In this document: positions 1,564-32,000 of the stretch, piece after piece
Numbering within the stretch: the stretch's first letter is position 1
Layout: each line of letters begins with the position of its first letter
DNA from: Candidatus Saccharimonadota bacterium
Lineage (GTDB): Bacteria; Patescibacteriota; Microgenomatia; UBA1406; GWC2-37-13
Assembly (NCBI GenBank): GCA_016432445.1
Contig: CP066689.1
Coordinates: forward strand, 600,001-632,000
DNA length: 32,000 nucleotides
Direction of reading: 5' to 3'
Notes under the pieces: generated by a model
The model's input: the letters and a program-made list of their open reading frames with translations, nothing else
Told to the model about the DNA's origin: nothing
Databases searched by the model: none
Position numbers and translations under genes: made by a program

Positions 1564-1641
1564 AAAAAAAAGACCTATGGGGTGGAAAAAATCAGCCAGC
1601 GGCTGATTGATGACAACATTGTCACCAGTCCATAGGTCTTT
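1564..1641 (-). terminator. multi-hairpin 3' element of cassette A ending in U8 (complex intrinsic terminator or 3'-UTR RNA)
   Basis: Outer stem agacctatgg (1571-1580) pairs with ccataggtct (1630-1639). It encloses hairpins at 1591-1607 and 1611-1624. On the minus strand the structure is followed by T8 (1564-1571). Confidence 0.55.
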
Positions 1642-1695
1642 CGATTTTGCACTCCATTGTGCGGATGACTAGATTAGTTTGGTTGCCATTACACC

Positions 1696-2109
1696 TCAGC
1701 TTGTGTGATTGACTCCGTTTTGCCGTATCACAGTGATAGCGGCTGCAGCTGCTAAAAGGATTGCTCCTGTAAGCAGAGACAGCATTATTAGGGTCTTAAA
1801 TGTGCTAGGTGACACGTAAGGTACGATTGTTACGACCAGCATGGGGAGTGCAATGAGCACGAGCGTTCCCAATCTGATCAACCTTGGGCTTCCGTCGGAT
1901 AATAGGATTGCGATTAAAAAAGTTCCAGCCACTATGATGGATGACACGATCAGGCTAAGGATTCTCCCAAGCGGTGAGCTTTCGTCTGAGAGGCCTGGAC
2001 CCTGGCTGATGTTTAGTGAGATAGCTCCTACAGTGACGACTATCAGGAGCAGACCAATAAGAGCGTTAAAAACCAAGGTTGTTTTGTCGATTGACGCTAA
2101 ACGTTTCAT
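1696..2109 (-). CDS. small integral membrane protein, 137 aa, about 4 TM (cassette A gene 3)
   Basis: The ORF is almost entirely hydrophobic segments. It runs co-directionally 4 nt after the 68-aa gene, and its G+C is higher than the flanks. Confidence 0.55.
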   Translation of the reverse strand: MKRLASIDKTTLVFNALIGLLLIVVTVGAISLNISQGPGLSDESSPLGRILSLIVSSIIVAGTFLIAILLSDGSPRLIRLGTLVLIALPMLVVTIVPYVSPSTFKTLIMLSLLTGAILLAAAAAITVIRQNGVNHTS

Positions 2110-2113
2110 TGCA

Positions 2114-2320
2114 CTAGCCTCCTTTTTCAGTTGTTTGTCTTTTCGGCAGTCCGAACGTCATGATTCCTGGCCCGGATATTCCAATGATAGCTCCGAAGCC
2201 AAAAACCAAAGCCGCAGTAGAGTGATCCGTAACATTCCAGGCTACCATAACGACTGATGTCACAACAATTGCCAAACCCAGAATTGCTACGATCCCCCCA
2301 GCATAGAACCACTTTGACAT
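2114..2320 (-). CDS. small membrane protein, 68 aa, 2 TM (cassette A gene 2; paralogue of 4055..4276)
   Basis: GGAGG Shine-Dalgarno upstream. An ungapped alignment to the 73-aa ORF shows MSKW.Y, GAI.G..GP and GLP.RQTT. Confidence 0.65.
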   Translation of the reverse strand: MSKWFYAGGIVAILGLAIVVTSVVMVAWNVTDHSTAALVFGFGAIIGISGPGIMTFGLPKRQTTEKGG

Positions 2321-2392
2321 GATCTTTCCTCCTTCTTATTTTAATCAATCTCCAAGTGACCGCCGAGCAATTTTCAGTTGTGAGTTTTTATG

Positions 2393-2647
2393 TTAGATCT
2401 CGATCCTCCTTACTGGAATGTGAATGCTTGATGCTAGGAAGGTTACGCCGATTGAACCGATTAGGATACCTCCATAAAACAAGATGTCTGACAAGAGTTT
2501 GAACGAGATAACCAGAACATAGTTACCTCCCAATGATATGAACAGAGGATAGTCATTAGATAGTATAGGCAAGAAGAAAATAGATACAATTACTAGCGCC
2601 GTCCCAACTGCGGTTAGAGATGCCCCAATTTTTTGAGCGATAGACAT
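2393..2647 (-). CDS. small membrane protein, 84 aa, about 3 TM (cassette A gene 1; paralogue of 4294..4566)
   Basis: Hydrophobic ORF with an AGGA Shine-Dalgarno. It shares FFL..DY...YVL...Y.G.L..IG with the 90-aa ORF. Confidence 0.6.
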   Translation of the reverse strand: MSIAQKIGASLTAVGTALVIVSIFFLPILSNDYPLFISLGGNYVLVISFKLLSDILFYGGILIGSIGVTFLASSIHIPVRRIEI

Positions 2648-2673
2648 TATTTAATTTTCCTTTCTTCTTTTTT

Positions 2674-2814
2674 ATCCGCACAATTTGTCAAGGTTCGAAG
2701 AAATCTGCAAAAGAAACTTCATCAGGCAGCTATTGTCTAAATCCATTTATCTCACAGCCTTCTTCAAAATGAATTATAGCAAATTCATTTCGAGCCTTTT
2801 ATAGCAACACTTTC
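2674..2814 (-). repeat. 141-bp perfect direct repeat, copy 1 (promoter plus 5' leader of cassette A)
   Basis: Identical base for base to 4594..4734 at an offset of exactly 1920 nt. Identity breaks at 2673/4593 and at 2815/4735. Confidence 0.95.
2773..2807 (-). promoter_or_regulatory. tandem TTGCTATAA motifs; proximal one is an extended -10 (TGcTATAAT)
   Basis: The minus strand reads gTTGCTATAAAaggctcgaaatgaatTTGCTATAATtc. The predicted transcript start leaves a leader of about 120 nt. Confidence 0.5.
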
Positions 2815-2895
2815 ATCAAAGAATATTAAATATCCCTAGCGTTGACATAAATATAATATTATTATATCTTTAACTATTAATTCCAAATAATCTCT

Positions 2896-3066
2896 ATGTA
2901 TAAGGTTACAGCTTATAGATTTGCAATCAAACTTTGGGGAAGATTTGGACCGGAAAGAGCCAAAGAATTAGAAGGATATCTAAACTCAAGTTCACCTGAC
3001 GGCTATGAATTAGTTATCGTATTACCTTTTGGATTTTGGTTTATGTGTATCTGGAAAAAGAAATAG
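2896..3066 (+). CDS. 56-aa protein, possibly DUF4177-like
   Basis: An ORF below the track cutoff translates to MYKVTAYRFAIKLWGRFGPERAKELEGYLNSSSPDGYELVIVLPFGFWFMCIWKKK. The pattern resembles the ...EL...L...G.EGWELVSV signature, recalled from memory. Confidence 0.3.
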   Translation: MYKVTAYRFAIKLWGRFGPERAKELEGYLNSSSPDGYELVIVLPFGFWFMCIWKKK

Positions 3067-3184
3067 AAATAGCTTTGAAAACATAATATTCTCATTACGC
3101 TCGATTTCACTTCGGAGGTAAGTAAATTCAAATATTTTAGAAACTTTTGCTATGGCCTATAGCATTGCTTTTTATTTCTTCTTT

Positions 3185-3193
3185 TGCTAGAAT
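3185..3193 (+). promoter_or_regulatory. extended -10 (TGcTAGAAT) 7 nt upstream of the ATG at 3201
   Basis: Sequence TGCTAGAAT-tcagcat-ATG with no Shine-Dalgarno. This supports 3201 as the real start. Confidence 0.4.
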
Positions 3194-3200
3194 TCAGCAT

Positions 3201-3803
3201 ATGGTAATGAATGAGCAGTTTAAAAGACATATTCGTGCAAATGAGGGTGAACCAGGACTAAACGAATTAATAGAACTTCATGATCGTTTTAATCAACTTG
3301 TAACAGAGGGAAAAATAAAAGAATTACCACTTGATGAACAAGTTTCTCTTAGGGAAAAACCACGTGGACATAGAGGAAATAGAAAAAAGATTGATATTGT
3401 GTTAAAAAACGGAGAAACAGTATCGATTCCAAGAGAATTGTTGTCTGAAGAGACTGCAATATTGGAATATGCAGAAAGACGGCATAATGAAGATCCTGAA
3501 CATCCTTATTTTTATGCTAAGGATTTATTTAATGATGCGGTAATTAAAGCTGAAGTAAAGAATACTGGGTTTGTTTACAAGATGATGGGTAAGCTTATAA
3601 AATGGCATTGCTTAATTTCTAGGTTTGATCCTGTGGACTGCGAAAAAAAAGGGCCTGCGATTCGTGCAACTGCTTTTGCTATAACAGACAGCGGGTTAGA
3701 GATAGTCTCATTATTCCGTACACAAACAGGTGAAGCAAAAGTAAAGGGTGCGCAATTTAAATTCTTAAAAGCAATAAACGCTTCAGGTTATTCAAGAAAA
3801 TAA
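3201..3803 (+). CDS. hypothetical protein, 200 aa, with a possible C-terminal winged-helix-like region
   Basis: Long ORF. The internal ATG at 3201 is preferred over the TTG at 3147 because of the adjacent -10 box. The segment FVYKMMGKLIKWHCLISRF...AITDSGLEIV looks like a wHTH recognition helix plus wing; this is a weak by-eye call. Confidence 0.55.
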   Translation: MVMNEQFKRHIRANEGEPGLNELIELHDRFNQLVTEGKIKELPLDEQVSLREKPRGHRGNRKKIDIVLKNGETVSIPRELLSEETAILEYAERRHNEDPEHPYFYAKDLFNDAVIKAEVKNTGFVYKMMGKLIKWHCLISRFDPVDCEKKGPAIRATAFAITDSGLEIVSLFRTQTGEAKVKGAQFKFLKAINASGYSRK

Positions 3804-3843
3804 TTCTTCTAAAATAATGATTGAATAAAAAGCTTGGGGGGGT

Positions 3844-3933
3844 AAAAAAAAGACCTATGGTTTTCCGTTGAGTAAATGCACTTTATTGTGCACCGGCGAC
3901 TATATAGTCGTCTAAACGGTTGACCATAGGCCT
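3844..3933 (-). terminator. multi-hairpin 3' element of cassette B ending in U8
   Basis: Outer stem agacctatgg (3851-3860) pairs with ccataggcct (3924-3933) and is perfect on the minus strand only, via one G-U. Inner stem ccgtt/aacgg, with hairpins at 3877-3892 and 3895-3912. T8 follows on the minus strand (3844-3851). Confidence 0.55.
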
Positions 3934-3961
3934 TTAAACCTATCCACACCTGCGCGGATAT

Positions 3962-4051
3962 TTAGTTTGCCGTGACAGACCGCACGGCCGCAAAAACGAC
4001 TCCCACGACTACGACGAAGCCAATAAAAAGGCGAAGAAGAATCTCGTCCAT
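3962..4051 (-). CDS. 29-aa single-TM micro-ORF, possibly a deletion remnant of the 137-aa gene
   Basis: Translates to MDEILLRLFIGFVVVVGVVFAAVRSVTAN. It occupies the gene-3 position of cassette B, and its C-terminus resembles ...AAAAITVIRQNGVN of the 137-aa protein. Confidence 0.3.
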   Translation of the reverse strand: MDEILLRLFIGFVVVVGVVFAAVRSVTAN

Positions 4052-4054
4052 TTG

Positions 4055-4276
4055 TTATGCTCTTTCTTCAGTGGATTGAGTGGTTTGTCTTGGCGGCAGT
4101 CCGTGAACTATCAGCGCTGGGCCAATAAGACCCAGTATGGCTCCTGCAGCGAGGAACCAAAAAGAGAGCAGGTGCTCAGCTGGGTTTGAGAGCAGTATAA
4201 CAATGGACACAGCTATGCATACCAAACTGAGAGCAATGGTGGCTCCCGCTAAGTAGTCCCATTTAGACATGATCAT
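4055..4276 (-). CDS. small membrane protein, 73 aa, 2 TM (cassette B gene 2)
   Basis: GGAGG Shine-Dalgarno. Paralogue of 2114..2320. Confidence 0.65.
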   Translation of the reverse strand: MIMSKWDYLAGATIALSLVCIAVSIVILLSNPAEHLLSFWFLAAGAILGLIGPALIVHGLPPRQTTQSTEERA

Positions 4277-4293
4277 GATCTAATCCTCCTTTC

Positions 4294-4566
4294 TTAAGAG
4301 TATTCAGACTTGCGTTTATTCAGTTGTGAGTTGTCTTTCCTCTTTCCTTTCTCCACGATGAATAAACCGATCACCGTGAGCAAGACTCCTGCATAGAGCA
4401 GGGTATTCAAAAAGTGTCCATAAGGCAGAATTAAAACATAGGGTTCCACTGTGAACAATATTGAATTGTAGTCACGTACTGTAAATAGAAAAAAGGCAGA
4501 TAACAACAGTAGTATCGATCCGCTTGATACCATAGCAATACCAATGACCAGAGTCTTCGTCACCAT
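4294..4566 (-). CDS. small membrane protein, 90 aa, about 3 TM (cassette B gene 1)
   Basis: Hydrophobic ORF and paralogue of 2393..2647. The C-terminal basic tail corresponds to non-coding spacer in cassette A (shared ctcacaactgaa). Confidence 0.6.
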   Translation of the reverse strand: MVTKTLVIGIAMVSSGSILLLLSAFFLFTVRDYNSILFTVEPYVLILPYGHFLNTLLYAGVLLTVIGLFIVEKGKRKDNSQLNKRKSEYS

Positions 4567-4593
4567 CTCGATTCATCCCTTCGTTTATTTTTG

Positions 4594-4734
4594 ATCCGCA
4601 CAATTTGTCAAGGTTCGAAGAAATCTGCAAAAGAAACTTCATCAGGCAGCTATTGTCTAAATCCATTTATCTCACAGCCTTCTTCAAAATGAATTATAGC
4701 AAATTCATTTCGAGCCTTTTATAGCAACACTTTC
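4594..4734 (-). repeat. 141-bp perfect direct repeat, copy 2 (promoter plus 5' leader of cassette B)
   Basis: Identical to 2674..2814. It ends 5 nt before the ATG of the divergent gene at 4740. Confidence 0.95.
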
Positions 4735-4739
4735 GTAAA

Positions 4740-5735
4740 ATGAATATAACTTTTCTTGAACTTGAAGAGTGGGAAAAGCCAATGCTTAGAAATAATTTTT
4801 CAGGGCATAGTCTTAATTTTTATGAAGAAGCTTTAACTCAAAATAATCTTCAGTTGATCATAAAAACTGAGATATTATCACCCTTTATTTATTCCACGCT
4901 CTCAAAAGATATTCTTTCACAGCTTCCTAACCTCAAACTTATTGCTACCCGCTCAACAGGCTTTGATCATATTGATGTGAATTATTGTAAAGAAAGGGGA
5001 ATAACAGTCTGTAATGTTCCAACCTACGGAGTAAATACAGTGGCTGAGCACACTTTTTCTTTAATTTTGGCTCTGTCCAAGAAAATAGTTCCCTCAGTAG
5101 AGAATACAAGACAGGGTAATTTTGATCTTGATGGTTTGCGCGGAATTGAACTGGCCAACAAAACATTAGGGATAATTGGGCTTGGGCATATTGGTTTAAG
5201 AGTGGCTGAAATTGGGCGCTGTTTTAAGATGAAAATTATAGCCTACACGCCTCATCCTAATATTGATAAAGCGCAGGGAGTAACTTTTTGTGATCTGACA
5301 AGTCTTCTTTCCACCTCAGATTTTATAACATTGCATGTTCCCGCTACACCTGATTCAAATCACCTCATAAACAAGGAAAATATTAAACTATTAAAAAAAG
5401 GAAGTTTTCTTATTAATACTGCAAGGGGAGTCGTGGTTGAAACCGAAGCTATTCTTTGGGCTCTTGAACAAGGGATTCTTGGCGGAGTCGGATTGGATGT
5501 TCTTGAGGAAGAATGTGTTTTGAAAGAAGAACGGGAACTCTTGTCCAAGGATTTTTTAAAAACATGTAACCTAAAGACACAGCTATTAAACCATGTCCTT
5601 TTAACCAAAAAAAATGTGATTGTTACTCCACATAACGCCTTCAACAGCTATGAAGCATTACAGGAGATATTAGATACAACAGTCATCAACATAGAAAATT
5701 TTCTGGATGGGCAAGCAAAAAATCAAATATTATGA
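4740..5735 (+). CDS. D-isomer-specific 2-hydroxyacid dehydrogenase family protein
   Basis: GIIGLGHIGLRVAE NAD-binding motif. Also RSTGFDHID, LINTARG, GLDV..EE and TPHNAF, which holds the catalytic His region. Confidence 0.9.
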   Translation: MNITFLELEEWEKPMLRNNFSGHSLNFYEEALTQNNLQLIIKTEILSPFIYSTLSKDILSQLPNLKLIATRSTGFDHIDVNYCKERGITVCNVPTYGVNTVAEHTFSLILALSKKIVPSVENTRQGNFDLDGLRGIELANKTLGIIGLGHIGLRVAEIGRCFKMKIIAYTPHPNIDKAQGVTFCDLTSLLSTSDFITLHVPATPDSNHLINKENIKLLKKGSFLINTARGVVVETEAILWALEQGILGGVGLDVLEEECVLKEERELLSKDFLKTCNLKTQLLNHVLLTKKNVIVTPHNAFNSYEALQEILDTTVINIENFLDGQAKNQIL

Positions 5736-6310
5736 AAAACGGATTGAAAATACTGCTTCTGGCTGATTCTTGGCAGGTAACCGCACTTGGGATGATTGCC
5801 CCTATCTACGCCATTTTCGTAGAGAGAATTGGAGGAGATTTGTTAGATGCATCCTGGGCTTACTTTGCTTTTATGATGTCAACCGGAGTTACGATTTTTC
5901 TAATAAGTCATTGGGAAGATAAGATAAAACATAAAGAAAAACTGATTATGCTTGGTTATGTTTTAACGGTTGCTGGAGCAATGATGTACATCTTTGTCTT
6001 TAATCAGTTTACTTTAATTATTACTCAGATTGTCCTTGGTCTGGCTCAGGCAATTAAAGATCCTGCTTATGACGCTTTGTACTCCGATTATCTGGATACA
6101 GGAAAAAAAGCCTCAGAATGGGGTGACTGGGAGTCTATGTATTATGTGGCGACAGCTTTAGCGGCAATTCTCGGAGGATATATTGCTACAGTTCTTGGTT
6201 TTAGGGCGCTATTTGTTGGAATGGCTATATTTTCAATATTTAGTGCCCTTGTCTGCATAAATCTTTTTAGAAAGAAAGAGTATTTGCATTCAAAAGAATT
6301 GCTAAGATGA
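5732..6310 (+). CDS. six-TM membrane protein resembling half of an MFS transporter
   Basis: About six hydrophobic helices in 192 aa. The start overlaps the upstream stop (ATGA). Confidence 0.5.
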   Translation: MKNGLKILLLADSWQVTALGMIAPIYAIFVERIGGDLLDASWAYFAFMMSTGVTIFLISHWEDKIKHKEKLIMLGYVLTVAGAMMYIFVFNQFTLIITQIVLGLAQAIKDPAYDALYSDYLDTGKKASEWGDWESMYYVATALAAILGGYIATVLGFRALFVGMAIFSIFSALVCINLFRKKEYLHSKELLR

Positions 6311-8076: not shown

Positions 8077-8285
8077 CCTGTTAATTCAGAATTACCCCTT
8101 TGAGCGGGGCGGAGACCAAAGTCTCCAAGGGCGCGTGGCACAGTGAAACCGGAAGCCTTGTTGTTCGATTGCTAGCCATCACGCCATATGCGGTAAGCTG
8201 ACCAACCTATAAAGCACAAAAAGCTTCCTGCGAATACCCACCAGTCGGGGTGAAAGTATGCAGATAGCACTCCCGCCACTCTAAA

Positions 8286-8477
8286 CTATGGTCTTGGGTG
8301 GCGATGATGGTCTTCAAACCGCCTGAAGTCGCTGGTTGGTTTTCTGGTGAGCGCAGCCGTAGCAATCAGCACTAAGCCGATAATTACGAGGGCGCCTGCC
8401 TCCAGGCTAATTTGACGCTGAGATGCTATGAGTGCTAATCCTGCGAAAAACAAAATGACGCCTGTAATCTGTAGCAT
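8286..8477 (-). CDS. small membrane protein, 63 aa, 2 TM (cassette C gene 2)
   Basis: Two hydrophobic helices plus a basic/His-rich tail. AGGAG Shine-Dalgarno. Same length and architecture as 8506..8697. Confidence 0.55.
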   Translation of the reverse strand: MLQITGVILFFAGLALIASQRQISLEAGALVIIGLVLIATAALTRKPTSDFRRFEDHHRHPRP

Positions 8478-8505: not shown

Positions 8506-8697
8506 TCATCTCGAGTTCTGGCGTGCGTGGTCGGACTTACGGTAATCGGCCACTGGTCCTGCTATAAGATAGTGGACCACAATCATGGCTACGCCTACTA
8601 ATGCTACTACAATTGCTCCGCGTCGACCTGGCATAAATAAAAATACCAGGTTTGCAACCCCAACGATCAGAATGACTACTCCTACTGTTTTGAGCAT
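8506..8697 (-). CDS. small membrane protein, 63 aa, 2 TM (cassette C gene 1)
   Basis: Two hydrophobic helices and a polar tail. AAGGAG Shine-Dalgarno. It lies downstream of a diverged copy of the cassette A/B leader. Confidence 0.55.
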   Translation of the reverse strand: MLKTVGVVILIVGVANLVFLFMPGRRGAIVVALVGVAMIVVHYLIAGPVADYRKSDHARQNSR

Positions 8698-8792
8698 CTG
8701 ACTTACTCCTTCTAAATATTTTTTTTGAGCATAAGCTCTTTAAACTCACAAATATTTATGAGCTAAAAAAGCTTATGCTCTTTACTTTCCAC

Positions 8793-8884
8793 CAATTTGT
8801 CAAAGTTCAAAAAATATAATAAGCCAAAAAAGGCAAGCTATTAGCATTTTTTACTTATTTTATCAGCCTATATTATACCAAATT
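8793..8884 (-). promoter_or_regulatory. diverged third copy of the cassette promoter/leader (extended -10 TGgTATAAT at 8880..8872)
   Basis: Blocks shared with 2674-2790: caatttgtcaaRgttcRaaRaaat, ggcaRgctatt, tttatc..agcct and attataSca aatt. Confidence 0.5.
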
Positions 8885-11216: not shown

Positions 11217-14099
11217 ATGTTAAATTCAATCAAAATAAAAGGGGCAAGACAACATAATCTTAAAAATATTGATCTTGAAATTCCTAAAAATAAATTTGTA
11301 GTGATAACTGGTGTTTCAGGATCGGGTAAATCCTCTTTGGCTTTTGACACAATTTATGCTGAAGGACAGAGGAGATATGTTGAATCTTTATCGGCCTACG
11401 CCAGACAGTTTTTAGGAATAATGGATAAGCCGGATGTAGAAAGTATCGAAGGCCTATCCCCTTCTATTTCAATTGACCAGAAAACTGTTTCACATAATCC
11501 CCGTTCAACAGTGGGAACAATCACTGAAATCTATGATTACCTGCGTCTTTTATATGCCCGTATCGGTCACCCTCATTGCCCAAACTGTAAAATTGAGATC
11601 AGCAAGTTGTCAGTTGATGAAATTACAAGAAAAGTGTTTGATGCTATTGCTTTAGAACTGAATAAAGATAAAATCAAGCCTCACCAGTTTTCAATACTTT
11701 CGCCTATTGTTAGAGAAAGAAAAGGTGAGTTCAAGGATCTTTTTGATAACTTGAGCAGTAAAGGTTATACAAAAGTGAGAGTTGACGGCAAAGAAATAGA
11801 GATAAGCAGAGATATTAACTTAATAAAAACTAACAAACATACGATTGAGGTTATTGCTGACTCATTTTTTGTTTCGTATAGAGATTTTAAAGATGAGATT
11901 TTTAAAAGTAACTTAAGATCCCGCCTAAGCAGTAATATTGAACAGAGTACTAATTTATCAGATGGATTGGTTATTTTGAAAAGCTCTTCAGAAGAACATC
12001 TTTACTCGGAAAAATTTTCATGTCCCAACTGCAATTTGTCTCTTCCCGAAATCGAGCCGAGGATGTTTTCCTTTAATTCTCCCATTGGGGCGTGTGTAAC
12101 CTGTAAAGGCATAGGCACTATTTATAAGGTCGATCCTGAACTAGTACTTAACAAAAACTTAAGTATTAATGAAGGCGGTATTATCCCCTTCAGCAAGTTC
12201 TTTTTTATGGAAACATGGTACACCAGAATAATAAAAAAGATGGCTGAAGAGAAAGAAATTAATCTGAATAAACCTATTGAAAAGCTTGGGAAAGAAAAGA
12301 TTGAGACACTCCTTTATGGAACTGATGAGGTTTATCATGTGCCTGGAACAAACCGGCAAGGAAGACATACTGTCATACATGAAAAGTTTGATGGAATAGT
12401 GAAGGAGTTGGAACGGAGATACTTTGATTCCAGCAGCGACTACAGCGGTATGGATTTTCAAAAATACATGCGGGAGGAAGTTTGCGAATATTGCCGCGGA
12501 GCTAAACTTAAACCAGAGGTTTTATCAATCACAATTGATAATCAGAATATAGCTAAGCTTTCAGATTTTTCAGTAACTGATCTTATTGATTACTTAAAAA
12601 ATAAATTATTGTCAAAGATTAATAACTATGAAACCCAGATTGCCACTCCAATTTTAAAGGAAATTGATACGAGATTGACATTTTTAAATAATGTGGGATT
12701 ATCTTACCTTACTGTTTCCCGAGCCGCCAAGACTTTGTCAGGAGGAGAACTTCAAAGAATACGTTTAGCTTCGCAGATCGGAACAGGCCTAACCGGAGTT
12801 CTTTATGTTCTTGATGAGCCTTCAATCGGACTTCATCCTAAAGATGTTTCCGCTCTTATTGACAGCCTAAAAAATTTAAAAGAGCTGGGTAATACATTAA
12901 TTGTGGTTGAGCATGACCGCGAAACAATTGAGTCGGCAGATTATATTGTCGAACTTGGGCCCCATGCTGGGAAAAACGGCGGTAACATTATTTTCACAGG
13001 ATCTGTTGAACAAATTAAAAAGTCTGAAAAAGCTTTAACTGGTCAGTTTTTATCAGGAAAAAAATTAATAGAATTGACTAAAAATGAATTAGTTTCCACT
13101 CGAGGAAAAATCTCACTTAAAGGTGCCAAGCAATATAACCTTAAAAATATAAATGTTGATTTTCCATTAGGAAATCTCATTGCGGTGACCGGTGTATCTG
13201 GGTCAGGGAAATCTACATTGGTAACTGAAACTCTGTATCCAGCCCTTAAATACTATCTTGATGGTTACTATCAGGAACAAATGGGTGATTTCCAAAGATT
13301 AGAAGGATATCACTATATTGATCGCGTCTACCTTGTTGATCAGGGTCCAATAGGAAGAACTCCAAGATCAAATCCAGCAACGTACATTGGTTTTTTTGAT
13401 CTTATAAGAGACATTTTTGCTAAAACAATTGAGGCAAAAGTCAAAGGCTTTGAGAAAGGACGATTCTCATTTAATGTTAAGGGAGGCCGATGTGAGAAGT
13501 GTCAAGGTGCAGGAGTCATAAAAATTGAGATGCAGTTTTTACCAGATGTTTATGTGATCTGTGATGTCTGCGAGGGCATGCGTTACAACAGTGAAACGCT
13601 CGAGATTAAATATAAAGGTAAAAGTATTTATGATATTTTGAAGATGACGGTTGATGAAGCTGTTGACTTTTTCCAAAATCATCTATTAATTCACACAAAA
13701 CTACTCTTCCTTAAAAAGGTGGGCTTAGGCTATGTTGAACTCGGCCAGCCAGCTCCTACTTTCTCAGGAGGCGAAGCTCAAAGAATAAAACTGGCCAATG
13801 AACTTTCAAGAAAAGAAACTGGAAAGACTATGTATATTCTTGATGAACCCACTACTGGACTTCACTTTTATGATATCGAAAAACTTCTTCATGCATTAAA
13901 TGAGTTAGTCGCACGGGGTAATACGGTTGTAGTTATCGAACATAATCTTGATGTCATCAAAAATTGTCAGTACGTAATTGATATGGGGCCGGATGGAGGG
14001 ACAAAAGGCGGCCAGGTAGTTTATCAAGGAGAATTTAAAGGAATACTGAAAACAACATCCTATACAGGGGACTACTTAAAGAAAATGTTGTACTATTGA
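11217..14099 (+). CDS. uvrA: excinuclease ABC subunit A
   Basis: Two ABC ATPase modules ([29 protein letters not shown]), zinc-finger Cys clusters and 960 aa. Confidence 0.97.
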
Positions 14100-15934
14100 A
14101 TAATATGTCTTTGATTCTTCGTAATGTATTGACATCTATACTTTTCGTTATTTTTATTGTTTTACCCTACCAAGTTAAGGCACAGGATTTTAAAAGCGCT
14201 TATAAAGCCGAGTATTTTTTAAGTACTAATCAAGGAAGAATAACCGCCAGTGTTAAATTTGCTGCCTTGTTGACTAACCTTAGATCTGATATATATGTTA
14301 AAAAATTTTCAATAATTTTCCCAATGTCATTTGAGATTAAAAATATTAAAGCTTATGATGATAAAGGCGCAATCAATCCGTCAGTAACTACTGAAGGCTC
14401 GAAGATCAATATCCAGCTTGAGTTTAATGATCCTAATATTGGCAAGACAAGCGTTAACACTTTTAATTTAGAGTTTGATCAGGAGAACCTTTTTAAGGTT
14501 AATGGTAATGTGTGGGAAGTTATACTTCCGGTCATTGATGATAAGACAAGTGATAACTATCAGGTTATTGTTCATCTTCCATTAAATGAGGAAAAAAAGG
14601 TATCTATCTCAAAACCTAAGCCAGATGAGATAAAAGGTAACACTATTACATGGAATAATCCAAAAGTTAAAACTATTTATGCAGTCTTTGGCGATAAGCA
14701 ATATTACCAAACTAAGTTATCATATCATCTACGCAATCCTAAAATAATACCAGCTTATGCTGATATTGCTTTTCCCCCCGACACGCTTTATCAAAAAATT
14801 TTTATTAATAACATTGTACCAGCTCCAAGTTATACATATATCGACGAAGATGGAAATTTTAAAGCGAGATATTTGTTAAAGCCTAAAGAAAATCTTAATA
14901 TTTTATTTGATGGTGTGATTGAAGTTTTAAGCCAACCTCGATCTGAGCTTCAACCTCTGACTCGAGAAAAATTTCAGAACCAAAAAATATATTTACTTAC
15001 ACAAAAAAGCTTTTGGGAATTACCTACATCATCAAACATAAAAGTAGGTAAATCGCCAAAAGAAGTATACGATTTTGTAGTGGACAACCTAAAATATTAC
15101 TATGAAGGACTAAGTAAAAAGGACTTAAAAAGATTAGGAGCTGCTCAGGCTTTAGTAACACCAGAAAAGGCAGTCTGTGTAGAATTTACAGATTTATTTA
15201 TAGCAATTGCCCGTGAAAAAGGCCTTTATAGTCGAGAGATACAAGGGTATGGTTTTTCCAATGATCAAAAGTTAAGGCCTTTATCTTTAATCGCCGATGT
15301 GCTTCATTCCTGGCCTGAATATTATAATGATAGGACTGGTTTATGGGTGCCTATTGATCCAACTTGGGAAAATACGTCAGGCATTGATTATTTTTCTTCA
15401 TTTGATTTAAATCACATTGCTTTTGCCATCCATGGAAAAAATCCTGACAGTCCAGCTCCAGCCGGCTCTTATAAGCTTGCAGATACAAAAGATGTGTCAA
15501 TAGTTGCGGTTTCCTCAAGGCCTGATGAACAAACTAATGTAGGCACGAATCAGATTAACCTTCCCTCGCAGATTACTGATAAAGGAGAATATGAGACAAA
15601 GATAACAGTTGTAAATAACAGTAATGTTTTTCTTTACGATTTGCCAGTTGAGTTTATCTCAGATAACTTAGTTCTTTCACCAGACATGACAACGATAGCC
15701 TCTTTTGCTCCTTATGAAAAAAAAGAGATTATTTTAAAATATAAATCTCTTAATAAAAATAAAAAAACTAAAGCGAATTTATCAGTATCGGTTATGAAGA
15801 ATAACGTTTTTACTGGAACAATAGTTATTCTGCCATACTATTATCAATGGGGAATTTACATTGGTTATGGAGTAATTGGAATCTCGGCATTGATCTTGTT
15901 TTTCAAATTAATCCTAAGAAAACGGCCATTCTAG
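14096..15934 (+). CDS. transglutaminase-like domain protein with an N-terminal signal/TM and a C-terminal TM anchor
   Basis: Cys-His-Asp core pattern VCVEFTDLFIAIAR...HSWPEYY...WVPIDPTW. Hydrophobic N- and C-termini. The start is either the TTG at 14096, which overlaps the uvrA stop, or the ATG at 14105. Confidence 0.75.
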   Translation: MNNMSLILRNVLTSILFVIFIVLPYQVKAQDFKSAYKAEYFLSTNQGRITASVKFAALLTNLRSDIYVKKFSIIFPMSFEIKNIKAYDDKGAINPSVTTEGSKINIQLEFNDPNIGKTSVNTFNLEFDQENLFKVNGNVWEVILPVIDDKTSDNYQVIVHLPLNEEKKVSISKPKPDEIKGNTITWNNPKVKTIYAVFGDKQYYQTKLSYHLRNPKIIPAYADIAFPPDTLYQKIFINNIVPAPSYTYIDEDGNFKARYLLKPKENLNILFDGVIEVLSQPRSELQPLTREKFQNQKIYLLTQKSFWELPTSSNIKVGKSPKEVYDFVVDNLKYYYEGLSKKDLKRLGAAQALVTPEKAVCVEFTDLFIAIAREKGLYSREIQGYGFSNDQKLRPLSLIADVLHSWPEYYNDRTGLWVPIDPTWENTSGIDYFSSFDLNHIAFAIHGKNPDSPAPAGSYKLADTKDVSIVAVSSRPDEQTNVGTNQINLPSQITDKGEYETKITVVNNSNVFLYDLPVEFISDNLVLSPDMTTIASFAPYEKKEIILKYKSLNKNKKTKANLSVSVMKNNVFTGTIVILPYYYQWGIYIGYGVIGISALILFFKLILRKRPF

Positions 15935-17322: not shown

Positions 17323-17721
17323 ATGAAAAGACTGTTGAGGATGTTTATATTTTCTGCTTTTGCTTTGTATATTACTTCCTTGTGGAATGAGGGCTTTATC
17401 ATTAAGTTTGAGATTTATTCTTTGTTGGTACTTATATTAGCAATAGTTTTACTATACTATATTGTTAAGCCGTTAACTAAAATTATTCTTTTTCCGTTAA
17501 ATATATTAACCTTTGGTTTGGTTTCACTTGCCGTTTATTGTTTTCTTTTTTATATTATTGCTTCTCAGTCTTCGGTAATTATAATAAACAGCTGGATTTT
17601 CCATGGCGGTTCTTATCTAGGAGTAAACTTGGCAAAAATGAATATTTCATATGTACAAAATATAGTTTTGTCTTCTTTATCAGTATCGTTTATAATAAGC
17701 TTGCTGGAAAAAATACTTTAA
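17323..17721 (+). CDS. four-TM membrane protein, YvlD/phage-holin-4-like
   Basis: The pattern ...IVKPLTKIILFPLNILTFGLVSLAVYCFLFYI... resembles the PF04020-type family, recalled by eye. Confidence 0.45.
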   Translation: MKRLLRMFIFSAFALYITSLWNEGFIIKFEIYSLLVLILAIVLLYYIVKPLTKIILFPLNILTFGLVSLAVYCFLFYIIASQSSVIIINSWIFHGGSYLGVNLAKMNISYVQNIVLSSLSVSFIISLLEKIL

Positions 17722-30754: not shown

Positions 30755-30780
30755 CGCACTTTTAAAATTTTCACTGGACT

Positions 30781-30854
30781 GGGCTCGTAGTTCAGTTGGC
30801 TAGAACATCGCATTTGCAATGCGAAGGTCACCGGTTCGATCCCGGTCGAGTCCA
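30781..30854 (+). tRNA. tRNA-Ala (anticodon UGC)
   Basis: Acceptor GGGCTCG/CGAGTCC with the G3-U70 identity pair, anticodon loop TTTGCAA, T-loop GGTTCGATCC. Confidence 0.92.
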
Positions 30855-31065
30855 CCCTTCGTCCACGAGCTTACGCTCGGGATTTTGGAGTGGCACAGAC
30901 ACAACAAAGTGGGGCTAAAATAGTCGGCAAACTATAGTCAGCAGACAACAGAATTAATTTCCGTTGACTGTTGACTGTAGACTATCGACTATATATGTAC
31001 TTTGACAATCAGGAGTAAGGTAACAATTGAAAGGTATAAAATAATACATCTTTTTTTGAATAACT

Positions 31066-32000
<935 letters not shown>

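Follow-up and report, generated by a model that had tools for sequence, protein, structure and literature searches.

A 32,000-nt stretch of the chromosome deposited as Candidatus Saccharimonadota bacterium (GenBank assembly GCA_016432445.1, contig CP066689.1, positions 600,001 to 632,000 of the forward strand; hereafter the window, with positions counted from its first nucleotide) carries on its minus strand three loci of tandem tiny genes for predicted membrane proteins, termed here cassette A, cassette B and locus C. Cassettes A (2647→1564) and B (4566→3844) are two old, diverged copies of one operon for small integral membrane proteins. The window is otherwise an ordinary piece of candidate phyla radiation (CPR) chromosome, from an AT-rich and largely leaderless Roizmanbacteria genome, with a gene content that comprises SDR, D-2-hydroxyacid dehydrogenase, a half-size MFS protein, rsmI, DedA, uvrB, uvrA, uvrC, ruvAB, enolase and PPDK, in addition to five tRNA genes and an insertion-bearing 23S rRNA gene, of which the window contains the 5' end. 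The open reading frames (ORFs) that an earlier, sequence-only reading of this stretch had listed for the three loci are all present.

Cassette A begins with a predicted 5' untranslated region (UTR) of ~118 nt (2648-2766, placed from the position of an extended -10 element and from the predicted fold), in which a 70-nt imperfect hairpin is followed by an A-rich single-stranded stretch that holds a 16-nt box (GAACCTTGACAAATTG, 2681-2696, common to all three loci) and the Shine-Dalgarno (SD) site. Gene 1, A84 (2393-2647), encodes 84 residues with two, possibly three, transmembrane (TM) segments behind a weak SD site, AAGGA. Gene 2, A68 (2114-2320), encodes a 68-residue 2-TM hairpin with GxxxGxxG in TM2 and a conserved C-terminal GLPxRQTT, and gene 3, A137 (1696-2109), a 137-residue protein with four TM segments and a G+C content at third codon positions (GC3) of 0.49; both are preceded by AGGAGG. 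The predicted terminator (1561-1641) is built from a 12-bp basal stem (AAAGACCUAUGG/CCAUAGGUCUUU) around two inner hairpins, then U8 (-36.4 kcal/mol, z = -7.3).

Cassette B has the same layout. B90 (4294-4566; 90 residues, two TM segments, charged C-terminal tail) corresponds to A84, and B73 (4055-4276; 73 residues, or 71 from Met3, two TM segments, AGGAGG) to A68. At the position of gene 3 lies B29 (3962-4051), a hydrophobic ORF of 29 codons that lacks an SD site, and the terminator (3841-3935; -39.3 kcal/mol, z = -5.8) has the basal stem and U8 of cassette A with other inner hairpins, so that the three-way, Y-shaped architecture is kept although the inner hairpin sequences differ. The extended -10 element TGCTATAAT occurs at 2773-2781 in A and at 4693-4701 in B, predicting 5' UTRs of ~118 nt for both. 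Global alignment shows the two cassettes to be collinear from the upstream region through the terminator, in the order 5' region, gene 1, 14-nt block, gene 2, gene 3, terminator; the 14-nt block (AACTCACAACTGAA) is intergenic in A (2373-2386, minus strand) and recurs identically in B at 4319-4332, there inside the C-terminal tail of B90. B29 had been called a remnant ORF, and its position agrees with this description, but it shows no significant similarity to A137 (z = 1.4 against shuffles); by position alone, B29 is possibly what is left of a 137-like gene.

A68 and B73 align without gaps with 25 of 66 residues identical (BLASTP E 6e-16; z = 21.9 versus composition-preserving shuffles), in agreement with the ~25 identities counted in the sequence-only reading. 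The kinship of A84 and B90, which it had also put forward, is weak but real, with 27% identity, one indel within the shared FFL..DY motif and z = 8.6, and the two proteins of locus C, C63a and C63b, are likewise paralogous to one another (z = 8.4). From hydropathy and an AlphaFold model, two TM segments are counted in the 84/90-, 68/73- and 63/63-residue proteins and four in the 137-residue protein.

In the codon alignment of A68 and B73 the differences per codon position are 31/26/41, and the proportions of nonsynonymous and synonymous differences (pN and pS) are 0.42 and 0.70, which gives a ratio of nonsynonymous to synonymous substitution rates (dN/dS) of ~0.31 in frame, compared with 0.58 and 0.89 when the other two frames are read. 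The pairs A84/B90 and C63a/C63b show the same substitution pattern, the second codon position being the most conserved in all three pairs. Synonymous sites are saturated in the paralog pairs (pS 0.68-0.76), and 12 of the 25 residues conserved between A68 and B73 are specified by different synonymous codons. Codon substitutions thus follow the pattern of coding sequence. The possibility entertained beforehand that the ORFs are hydrophobic on either strand through local G+C content is at odds with the data: the 138-residue ORF opposite A137 has a grand average of hydropathy (GRAVY) of -0.31 and no TM segment, so that hydrophobicity is a property of one strand only. Together, the SD sites, the synonymous changes at conserved residues and the one-strand hydrophobicity identify the cassette ORFs, on the strength of their sequence, as genuine coding sequences. 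The same observations bear on the proposal that the ORFs are non-genes, either by-products of G+C-rich noncoding or RNA islands or fragments of a larger decayed transporter. This proposal can draw on the absence of most of the ORFs from the NCBI annotation and on a G+C-rich, ORF-free stretch of 209 nt after locus C; it is difficult to reconcile with an SD site before almost every ORF, with hydrophobicity on one strand, with an ungapped protein alignment and synonymous changes at conserved residues, with a second codon position that is the most conserved one in all three pairs, with gene order and boundaries kept in both copies, and with the lack of any Rfam match, and we consider it highly improbable.

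The codons for GLP.RQTT (2133-2152 and 4083-4102) depart from the rest of the A68/B73 alignment in that seven of the last eight conserved codons are nucleotide-identical, whereas most conserved residues elsewhere are encoded differently, which suggests an overlapping constraint at the nucleotide level directly before gene 3. The hexamer ACTGAA is common to this region and to the 14-nt block at 2373-2386 and 4319-4332.

Upstream of the genes, the two cassettes resemble each other far more closely than within them. Positions 2665-2820 and 4585-4740 are 97% identical across 156 nt, and the core of this repeat, copy 1 at 2674-2814 and copy 2 at 4594-4734, is identical over 141 nt and includes the extended -10 element, whereas the coding DNA beside it is only ~50% identical between A and B. 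Copy 2 lies directly against the beginning of the 2-hydroxyacid dehydrogenase gene, whose ATG is at 4740 on the plus strand. That the repeat is a true one follows from independent Logan contigs (more than 10 samples), which end precisely k-1 = 30 nt into the repeat on both cassette sides. In these contigs both copies run 22 nt further (AACTCCAGAGGTTGATATTTTA, plus strand), bringing the identical tract to 163 nt, and the extra stretch brings in a TTGATA -35 element for plus-strand promoters. One predicted promoter, TTGATA-17-TAAAAT, points to the 56- and 200-residue ORFs that lie between the cassettes, and the other, TTGATA-17-GATAAT, ends 8 nt before the dehydrogenase ATG, a leaderless layout typical of this genome. 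Missing from the public window are 38 nt following 2814 and 43 nt following 4734 (in each case the shared 22 nt first, then 16 and 21 nt of unique flank, respectively), and each missing piece takes away the -35-to--10 part of one plus-strand promoter; the gaps at 2814/2815 and 4734/4735 reflect either a mistake in the assembly or curation of the public genome or a variant with paired deletions.

The sequence-only reading had raised a regulated multi-subunit membrane function such as a channel or stress module; on this interpretation the long shared leader would be a cis-regulatory RNA (riboswitch, thermosensor or attenuator) that responds to a signal and governs translation of the subunits. 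The long predicted 5' UTRs (~118 and ~168 nt, the latter at locus C), the succession of a hairpin and an A-rich SD region within them, and the elements GAAGAAGG, UUUCUUC and GAAGAAAGG, which by eye rather than by computation could form alternative anti-SD pairings, are all compatible with such a device, and the glycine-zipper-like motif in TM2 of the 68/73-residue proteins is compatible with a channel. Glycine-zipper-like motifs are typical of oligomeric pores. The predicted A and B UTRs, however, fold no better than shuffled sequences (z = -0.09 and 0.02), the whole repeat reaches only z = -0.95 on either strand, and the SD site is unpaired in the minimum free energy structure. No match to the leader was found in Rfam 15 at the gathering threshold or at E ≤10, and a 32-nt exact probe did not recover it from JGI metagenomes. 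Further copies of leader or box were likewise not in evidence, the 24 matches in the species-representative collection, which does not include the source genome, and the six viral matches being at the chance level of a 19-mer. Being identical, the two copies can carry no covariation signal, their identity also spans the promoter and the -35 element of the divergent promoter, and the leader of locus C has only the box in common with them. Perfect identity over 141 nt beside genes with saturated synonymous sites argues for a recent duplication or gene conversion, since purifying selection does not keep every base. These results point to the leader being a duplicated region of predicted divergent promoters and 5' UTR instead of an element under riboswitch-like conservation, and we regard a regulatory RNA at the head of a channel or stress module as distinctly unlikely. 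Of the dedicated cis elements claimed for the cassettes, the predicted promoter, the long 5' UTR and the conserved terminator hold up; the leader as a conserved regulatory RNA, being probably a duplication or conversion tract and having a fold z of ~0, does not. Two small ORFs in this region were also considered and rejected: a 39-residue plus-strand ORF in the repeat, which is nowhere recorded as a called gene, and a 24-codon upstream ORF on the minus strand, which is not conserved and has lost its stop codon in B.

Locus C is akin to the cassettes in kind, with tandem tiny 2-TM proteins, SD sites, raised G+C and a long 5' region. C63a (8506-8697, minus strand; 63 residues, two TM segments, AGGAG) is followed by its tandem paralog C63b (8286-8477, minus strand; 63 residues, two TM segments, AGGAGG, GC3 0.50). 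The region upstream (8698-8880) contains an extended -10 element, TGGTATAAT, at 8872-8880, from which a 5' UTR of ~168 nt is predicted, the box GAACTTTGACAAATTG at 8793-8808 and a near-perfect 54-nt hairpin at 8727-8780 (fold z = -5.4), placed between the box and the SD site and directly before the latter. The box, GAACYTTGACAAATTG, is exact over 16 nt and lies on the same strand upstream of the first gene in A, B (4601-4616, inside copy 2 of the repeat) and C; the 32 kb hold no further occurrence of it even when three mismatches are allowed, and the chance expectation for the 22-mer with up to three mismatches is 0.00. The sequence-only reading had counted three copies of one module and a diverged copy of the same leader at the third locus. 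The exact box bears out part of this proposal, and A and B are true paralogous cassettes; the similarity of the C upstream region to the A/B leader over its whole length is not significant, and no homology was detected between C63a/C63b and the A/B proteins (hhalign probabilities ≤6%; shuffle tests). Locus C is thus best described as a predicted analogous operon that shares one short box with cassettes A and B and is not demonstrably homologous to them.

Two functions considered for the box were rejected. The TTGACA within it is not followed by an acceptable -10 element 16-18 nt downstream at any of the three loci, and transcription starting from it would in addition remove the SD site, so that a role as a -35 element was dismissed on reading the sequence. 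A Gram-positive-type LexA/SOS operator, an idea suggested by the divergent arrangement of locus C and uvrB, was dismissed as well; GAAC-N4-GTTC sites are not enriched in the window (eight found versus 10.3 expected), and none lies in the uvr or ruv promoters. C63b is separated from the DedA gene end by 209 nt (8077-8285) that are 51% G+C, contain no ORF of more than 35 codons, fold on the minus strand with -75 kcal/mol (z = -2.2) and have no Rfam match. This stretch could represent a third gene of locus C in decay, a small RNA of its own or a structured 3' UTR.

Relatives of the cassette proteins were sought in sequence, profile, family and structure collections. The A68/B73 profile retrieved only self matches in a word-indexed search of 5.8 billion clusters, and only the two proteins themselves and long repetitive proteins when 1.84 billion representatives were scanned in full with HMMER; no orthologues of A68/B73 were found in other CPR genomes or metagenomes. 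The homologue search with A137 likewise returned a self match only, and every cassette ORF looked up forms a singleton cluster (all but A68, and B29, whose sequence is absent from the collection). The curated cut-offs of Pfam-A and NCBIfam were reached by none of the cassette proteins; in PHROGs and PADLOC, for which such cut-offs do not exist, the only matches were two weak ones to PHROGs (A68, E 0.001; C63a, E 0.0034). The best-scoring family match was that of C63b to DUF7470 (24.5 bits, below the cut-off of 27), and C63a scored 21.5 bits on DUF7319 (cut-off 27); these families have no known function and a similar 2-TM size class, and the sub-threshold scores may reflect hydrophobic composition only. 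Three cassette proteins matched PF07332 (Phage_holin_3_6) with E 0.0012-0.078 and 13.5-19.3 bits (19.3 for B73) against a cut-off of 28.4, which we treat as leads only. In the PDB there was no sequence or fold match, the A137 model giving generic helical-bundle matches only (E > 0.5), and the phage, plasmid and viral contig (IMG/VR) collections held no match to the cassettes. Such searches lose power for TM proteins of 63-90 residues below ~35-40% identity. Synteny was no more informative, since among 57 loci with dehydrogenase homologues (≤62% identity) none shares neighbors, cassette proteins or leader. As far as these collections reach, the predicted cassette proteins are undescribed, largely unannotated and without detectable relatives, in keeping with the earlier impression that they belong to no named family.

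The annotation record is correspondingly sparse. A68 is identical to HYW86_03175 of an NCBI Candidatus Roizmanbacteria metagenome-assembled genome and, together with the 56- and 200-residue ORFs between the cassettes, is the only one of these ORFs annotated at NCBI under its exact sequence, while A84, A137, B90, B73, C63a and C63b are recorded from Logan gene calls alone. An apparent presence/absence polymorphism of cassette B proved to be a gene-calling artefact, the cassette being present on contig L111 (13 samples).

Cassettes and locus C stand apart from the rest of the window in composition and translation signals. GC3 is 0.42-0.57 in the cassette ORFs versus 0.281±0.033 in 25 other genes (maximum 0.357), and the contrast that the sequence-only reading had drawn from two spot counts is exact (G+C 0.50 at 2161-2220, 0.32 at 17341-17400). 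Native membrane proteins (DedA, MFS and a holin-like protein of 132 residues) as well as enolase and PPDK have GC3 values in the native range, so that the shift is accounted for neither by hydrophobicity nor by expression level. SD sites (AGGAGG, AGGAG or AGGA at canonical spacing) precede six of the eight cassette ORFs versus one of 25 native genes, and eight of the 25 native genes have a -10 box 4-13 nt before the ATG, which gives them a leaderless look; with predicted UTRs of ~118 and ~168 nt, this matches the leaders of 120-170 nt and the SD-versus-leaderless division reported before. The presence of a TATAAT-like box at this distance from the ATG in about a third of the native genes implies that leaderless mRNAs are widespread in this genome.

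Saturated synonymous sites combined with a GC3 far from that of the host leave two explanations, namely that A and B diverged before they entered this genome or that their GC3 is under selection. The second belongs to a reading in which the cassettes encode native, lineage-specific, fast-evolving membrane proteins whose GC3, Ala/Gly/Val-rich helices and SD sites are kept by selection, the box defining a small regulon; a variant of it holds out the possibility of a special translation mode in a genome that otherwise ignores SD sites. It accounts well for the restriction of high G+C to coding parts next to native-looking UTRs and promoters, for a GC3 that is still high despite synonymous saturation, as selection predicts, for a 16-nt box exclusive to three loci within 32 kb and for the failure of profile searches to turn up a donor. 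We also count in its favor that rare strong SD sites mark specially regulated genes in Bacteroidia (PMC7797042, PMC9976891). It does not explain why enolase, PPDK and the native membrane proteins have no GC3 shift, and it fits poorly with the absence of orthologues from other CPR genomes or metagenomes and with the apparent decay of one copy, which seems to have lost gene 3. We favor acquisition over selection as the cause of the high GC3 and regard native, selected proteins as unlikely, if still worth serious consideration. A bolder version, in which box GAACYTTGACAAATTG defines a CPR-specific regulon of three orphan operons and the strong SD sites constitute a separate, switchable translation mode, comparable to that of the few SD-bearing, specially regulated genes of Bacteroidia, strikes us as improbable; were it true, the regulon would comprise an undescribed oligomeric membrane pore or complex deployed only under particular conditions.

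The reading that we prefer, at a probability of roughly one half, is that the loci are moron-like acquired units for small oligomeric membrane proteins, probably with an accessory function. The units would have been acquired horizontally as self-contained assemblies of promoter, genes and terminator and set among housekeeping genes, A and B having diverged before their residence in the present genome and their 5' regions having been homogenized later by recent duplication or gene conversion. A moron is a promoter-gene-terminator unit with a composition unlike that of its neighbors (PMC4378225). Like phage morons, the loci have a predicted promoter of their own (extended -10 elements TGCTATAAT and TGGTATAAT) and, again by prediction, a strong terminator (z = -7.3 and -5.8 for A and B, with U8), their coding composition deviates, they lie between unrelated genes and their products are small membrane proteins, as in many morons. 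They differ from phage morons in lying among housekeeping genes (SDR, 2-hydroxyacid dehydrogenase, rsmI, DedA, uvrB) with no prophage, in holding two to three genes instead of one, in the host-like composition of promoters and UTRs and in the lack of detected phage relatives.

As the most likely mechanism, and as the weakest step of the moron-like reading, we infer that the hairpin pairs kept in A and B, 84/90 and 68/73, would insert with both termini in the cytoplasm (N-in/C-in, as the distribution of Lys and Arg suggests) and pack through small-residue motifs into a small hetero-oligomer in the cytoplasmic membrane. TM2 of the 68/73-residue proteins, in which GxxxGxxG is followed by Pro, together with the conserved GLPxRQTT, which would face the cytoplasm, fits close helix packing in such an oligomer. 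The 4-TM protein A137 would be a dispensable third subunit. Size, two TM segments, charged tails, divergence, foreign composition and an apparently decaying copy suit an accessory role, holin-like or toxin/exclusion-like, better than a housekeeping one. The cassette proteins resemble class II holins and pinholins in having 63-90 residues, two TM segments, short charged C-terminal tails and extreme diversity; hydropathy and sequence place two TM helices ahead of charged tails that read KRQTTEKGG, PRQTTQSTEERA, DYRKSDHARQNSR or DFRRFEDHHRHPRP. B73 also shares with holins of this class a pair of Met codons spaced two positions apart (M-I-M), but unlike in a lambda-type antiholin the extra N-terminal residues add no charge. 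In contrast to class II holins and to PF07332, the cassette proteins stay below the family threshold, and the window offers no endolysin, spanin or phage context; when all larger ORFs in the 32 kb were scanned against Pfam, no lysin or phage genes turned up beside the loci.

Several observations weigh against the acquired-unit reading. G+C is raised in the coding parts only, the 5' regions and terminator loops being native-like, and selection on codon or amino acid composition could explain GC3 in place of transfer. A donor or homologue was found nowhere, which is odd for a recent transfer, although relatives below ~35-40% identity would escape the searches. Neither prophage nor integrase, endolysin or antisense RNA was found near the loci. 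Confidence in the AlphaFold model of A137 is low (predicted local distance difference test, pLDDT, 64). Gene callers are at odds, the Logan calls omitting B90 and B73 on contig L111 and C63b on three contigs. Lastly, the Logan contigs all match the window at 100% identity and are thus clonal, so that they yield no population dN/dS.

A further family of membrane-active loci was compared with the cassettes. The type I toxin-antitoxin (TA) systems hok/sok, ldr/rdl and zorO/orzO are small, hydrophobic, multi-copy and lineage-specific, with near-identical long 5' UTRs and decaying copies. In a reading modeled on them, the cassettes would encode membrane-depolarizing toxins silenced by the long 5' UTR and by an antisense or divergent small RNA, and their multi-copy, lineage-restricted occurrence, long conserved 5' regions, strong terminators, small hydrophobic products and one decaying copy would fit. 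However, a type I toxin is typically a single 1-TM protein of fewer than 60 residues, whereas the cassettes are polycistronic, with two to three ORFs of 63-137 residues and 2-4 TM segments; no antisense RNA signal was found, consensus scans revealing no conserved antisense promoter, and the one plus-strand candidate, TTGACA-17-TATTTT (2314-2342), falls within coding sequence and has no counterpart in B; furthermore, the SD site is not sequestered in the predicted fold. Type I TA-like loci are very unlikely in our estimate.

If real and expressed, the cassette genes would add unannotated orphan membrane proteins to a reduced CPR genome, and it is in such small unknown proteins that lineage-specific CPR biology (host attachment, membrane transport, defense) is thought mostly to reside. 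The SD contrast of six of eight versus one of 25 offers a natural case for SD-dependent and leaderless initiation coexisting in one cell, and the locus illustrates that perfect conservation of a leader can reflect a conversion tract and not a regulatory RNA. The practical value lies mainly in better annotation and a candidate list; a channel, a stress module and a toxin are all conceivable, and no result favors a particular function.

Some minor features of the window deserve mention. Between cassettes A and B, the 56-residue ORF (2896-3066, plus strand) and the 200-residue ORF (3201-3803, plus strand) have native composition and leaderless-type promoters, and neither matches the four family libraries scanned. 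The 56-residue ORF is a singleton cluster for which no homologue search was made; for the 200-residue ORF the homologue search returned itself only, and its AlphaFold model (pLDDT 41) is unusable. The MFS_1 protein at 5732-6310 (plus strand; 192 residues) has about half the normal MFS length, its start overlapping the dehydrogenase stop, and could be the product of a truncated gene or else a half-size transporter. A 612-residue protein with a transglutaminase core (14096-15934, plus strand) sits between uvrA and uvrC, its TTG start overlapping the uvrA stop. At the far end of the window, the 5' part of the 23S rRNA (31070-32000, plus strand) departs from the bacterial model by insertions of about 50 and 89 nt and is preceded by tRNA-Ala (30780-30857) with no 16S rRNA upstream in the window, so that the rRNA genes appear to be unlinked.

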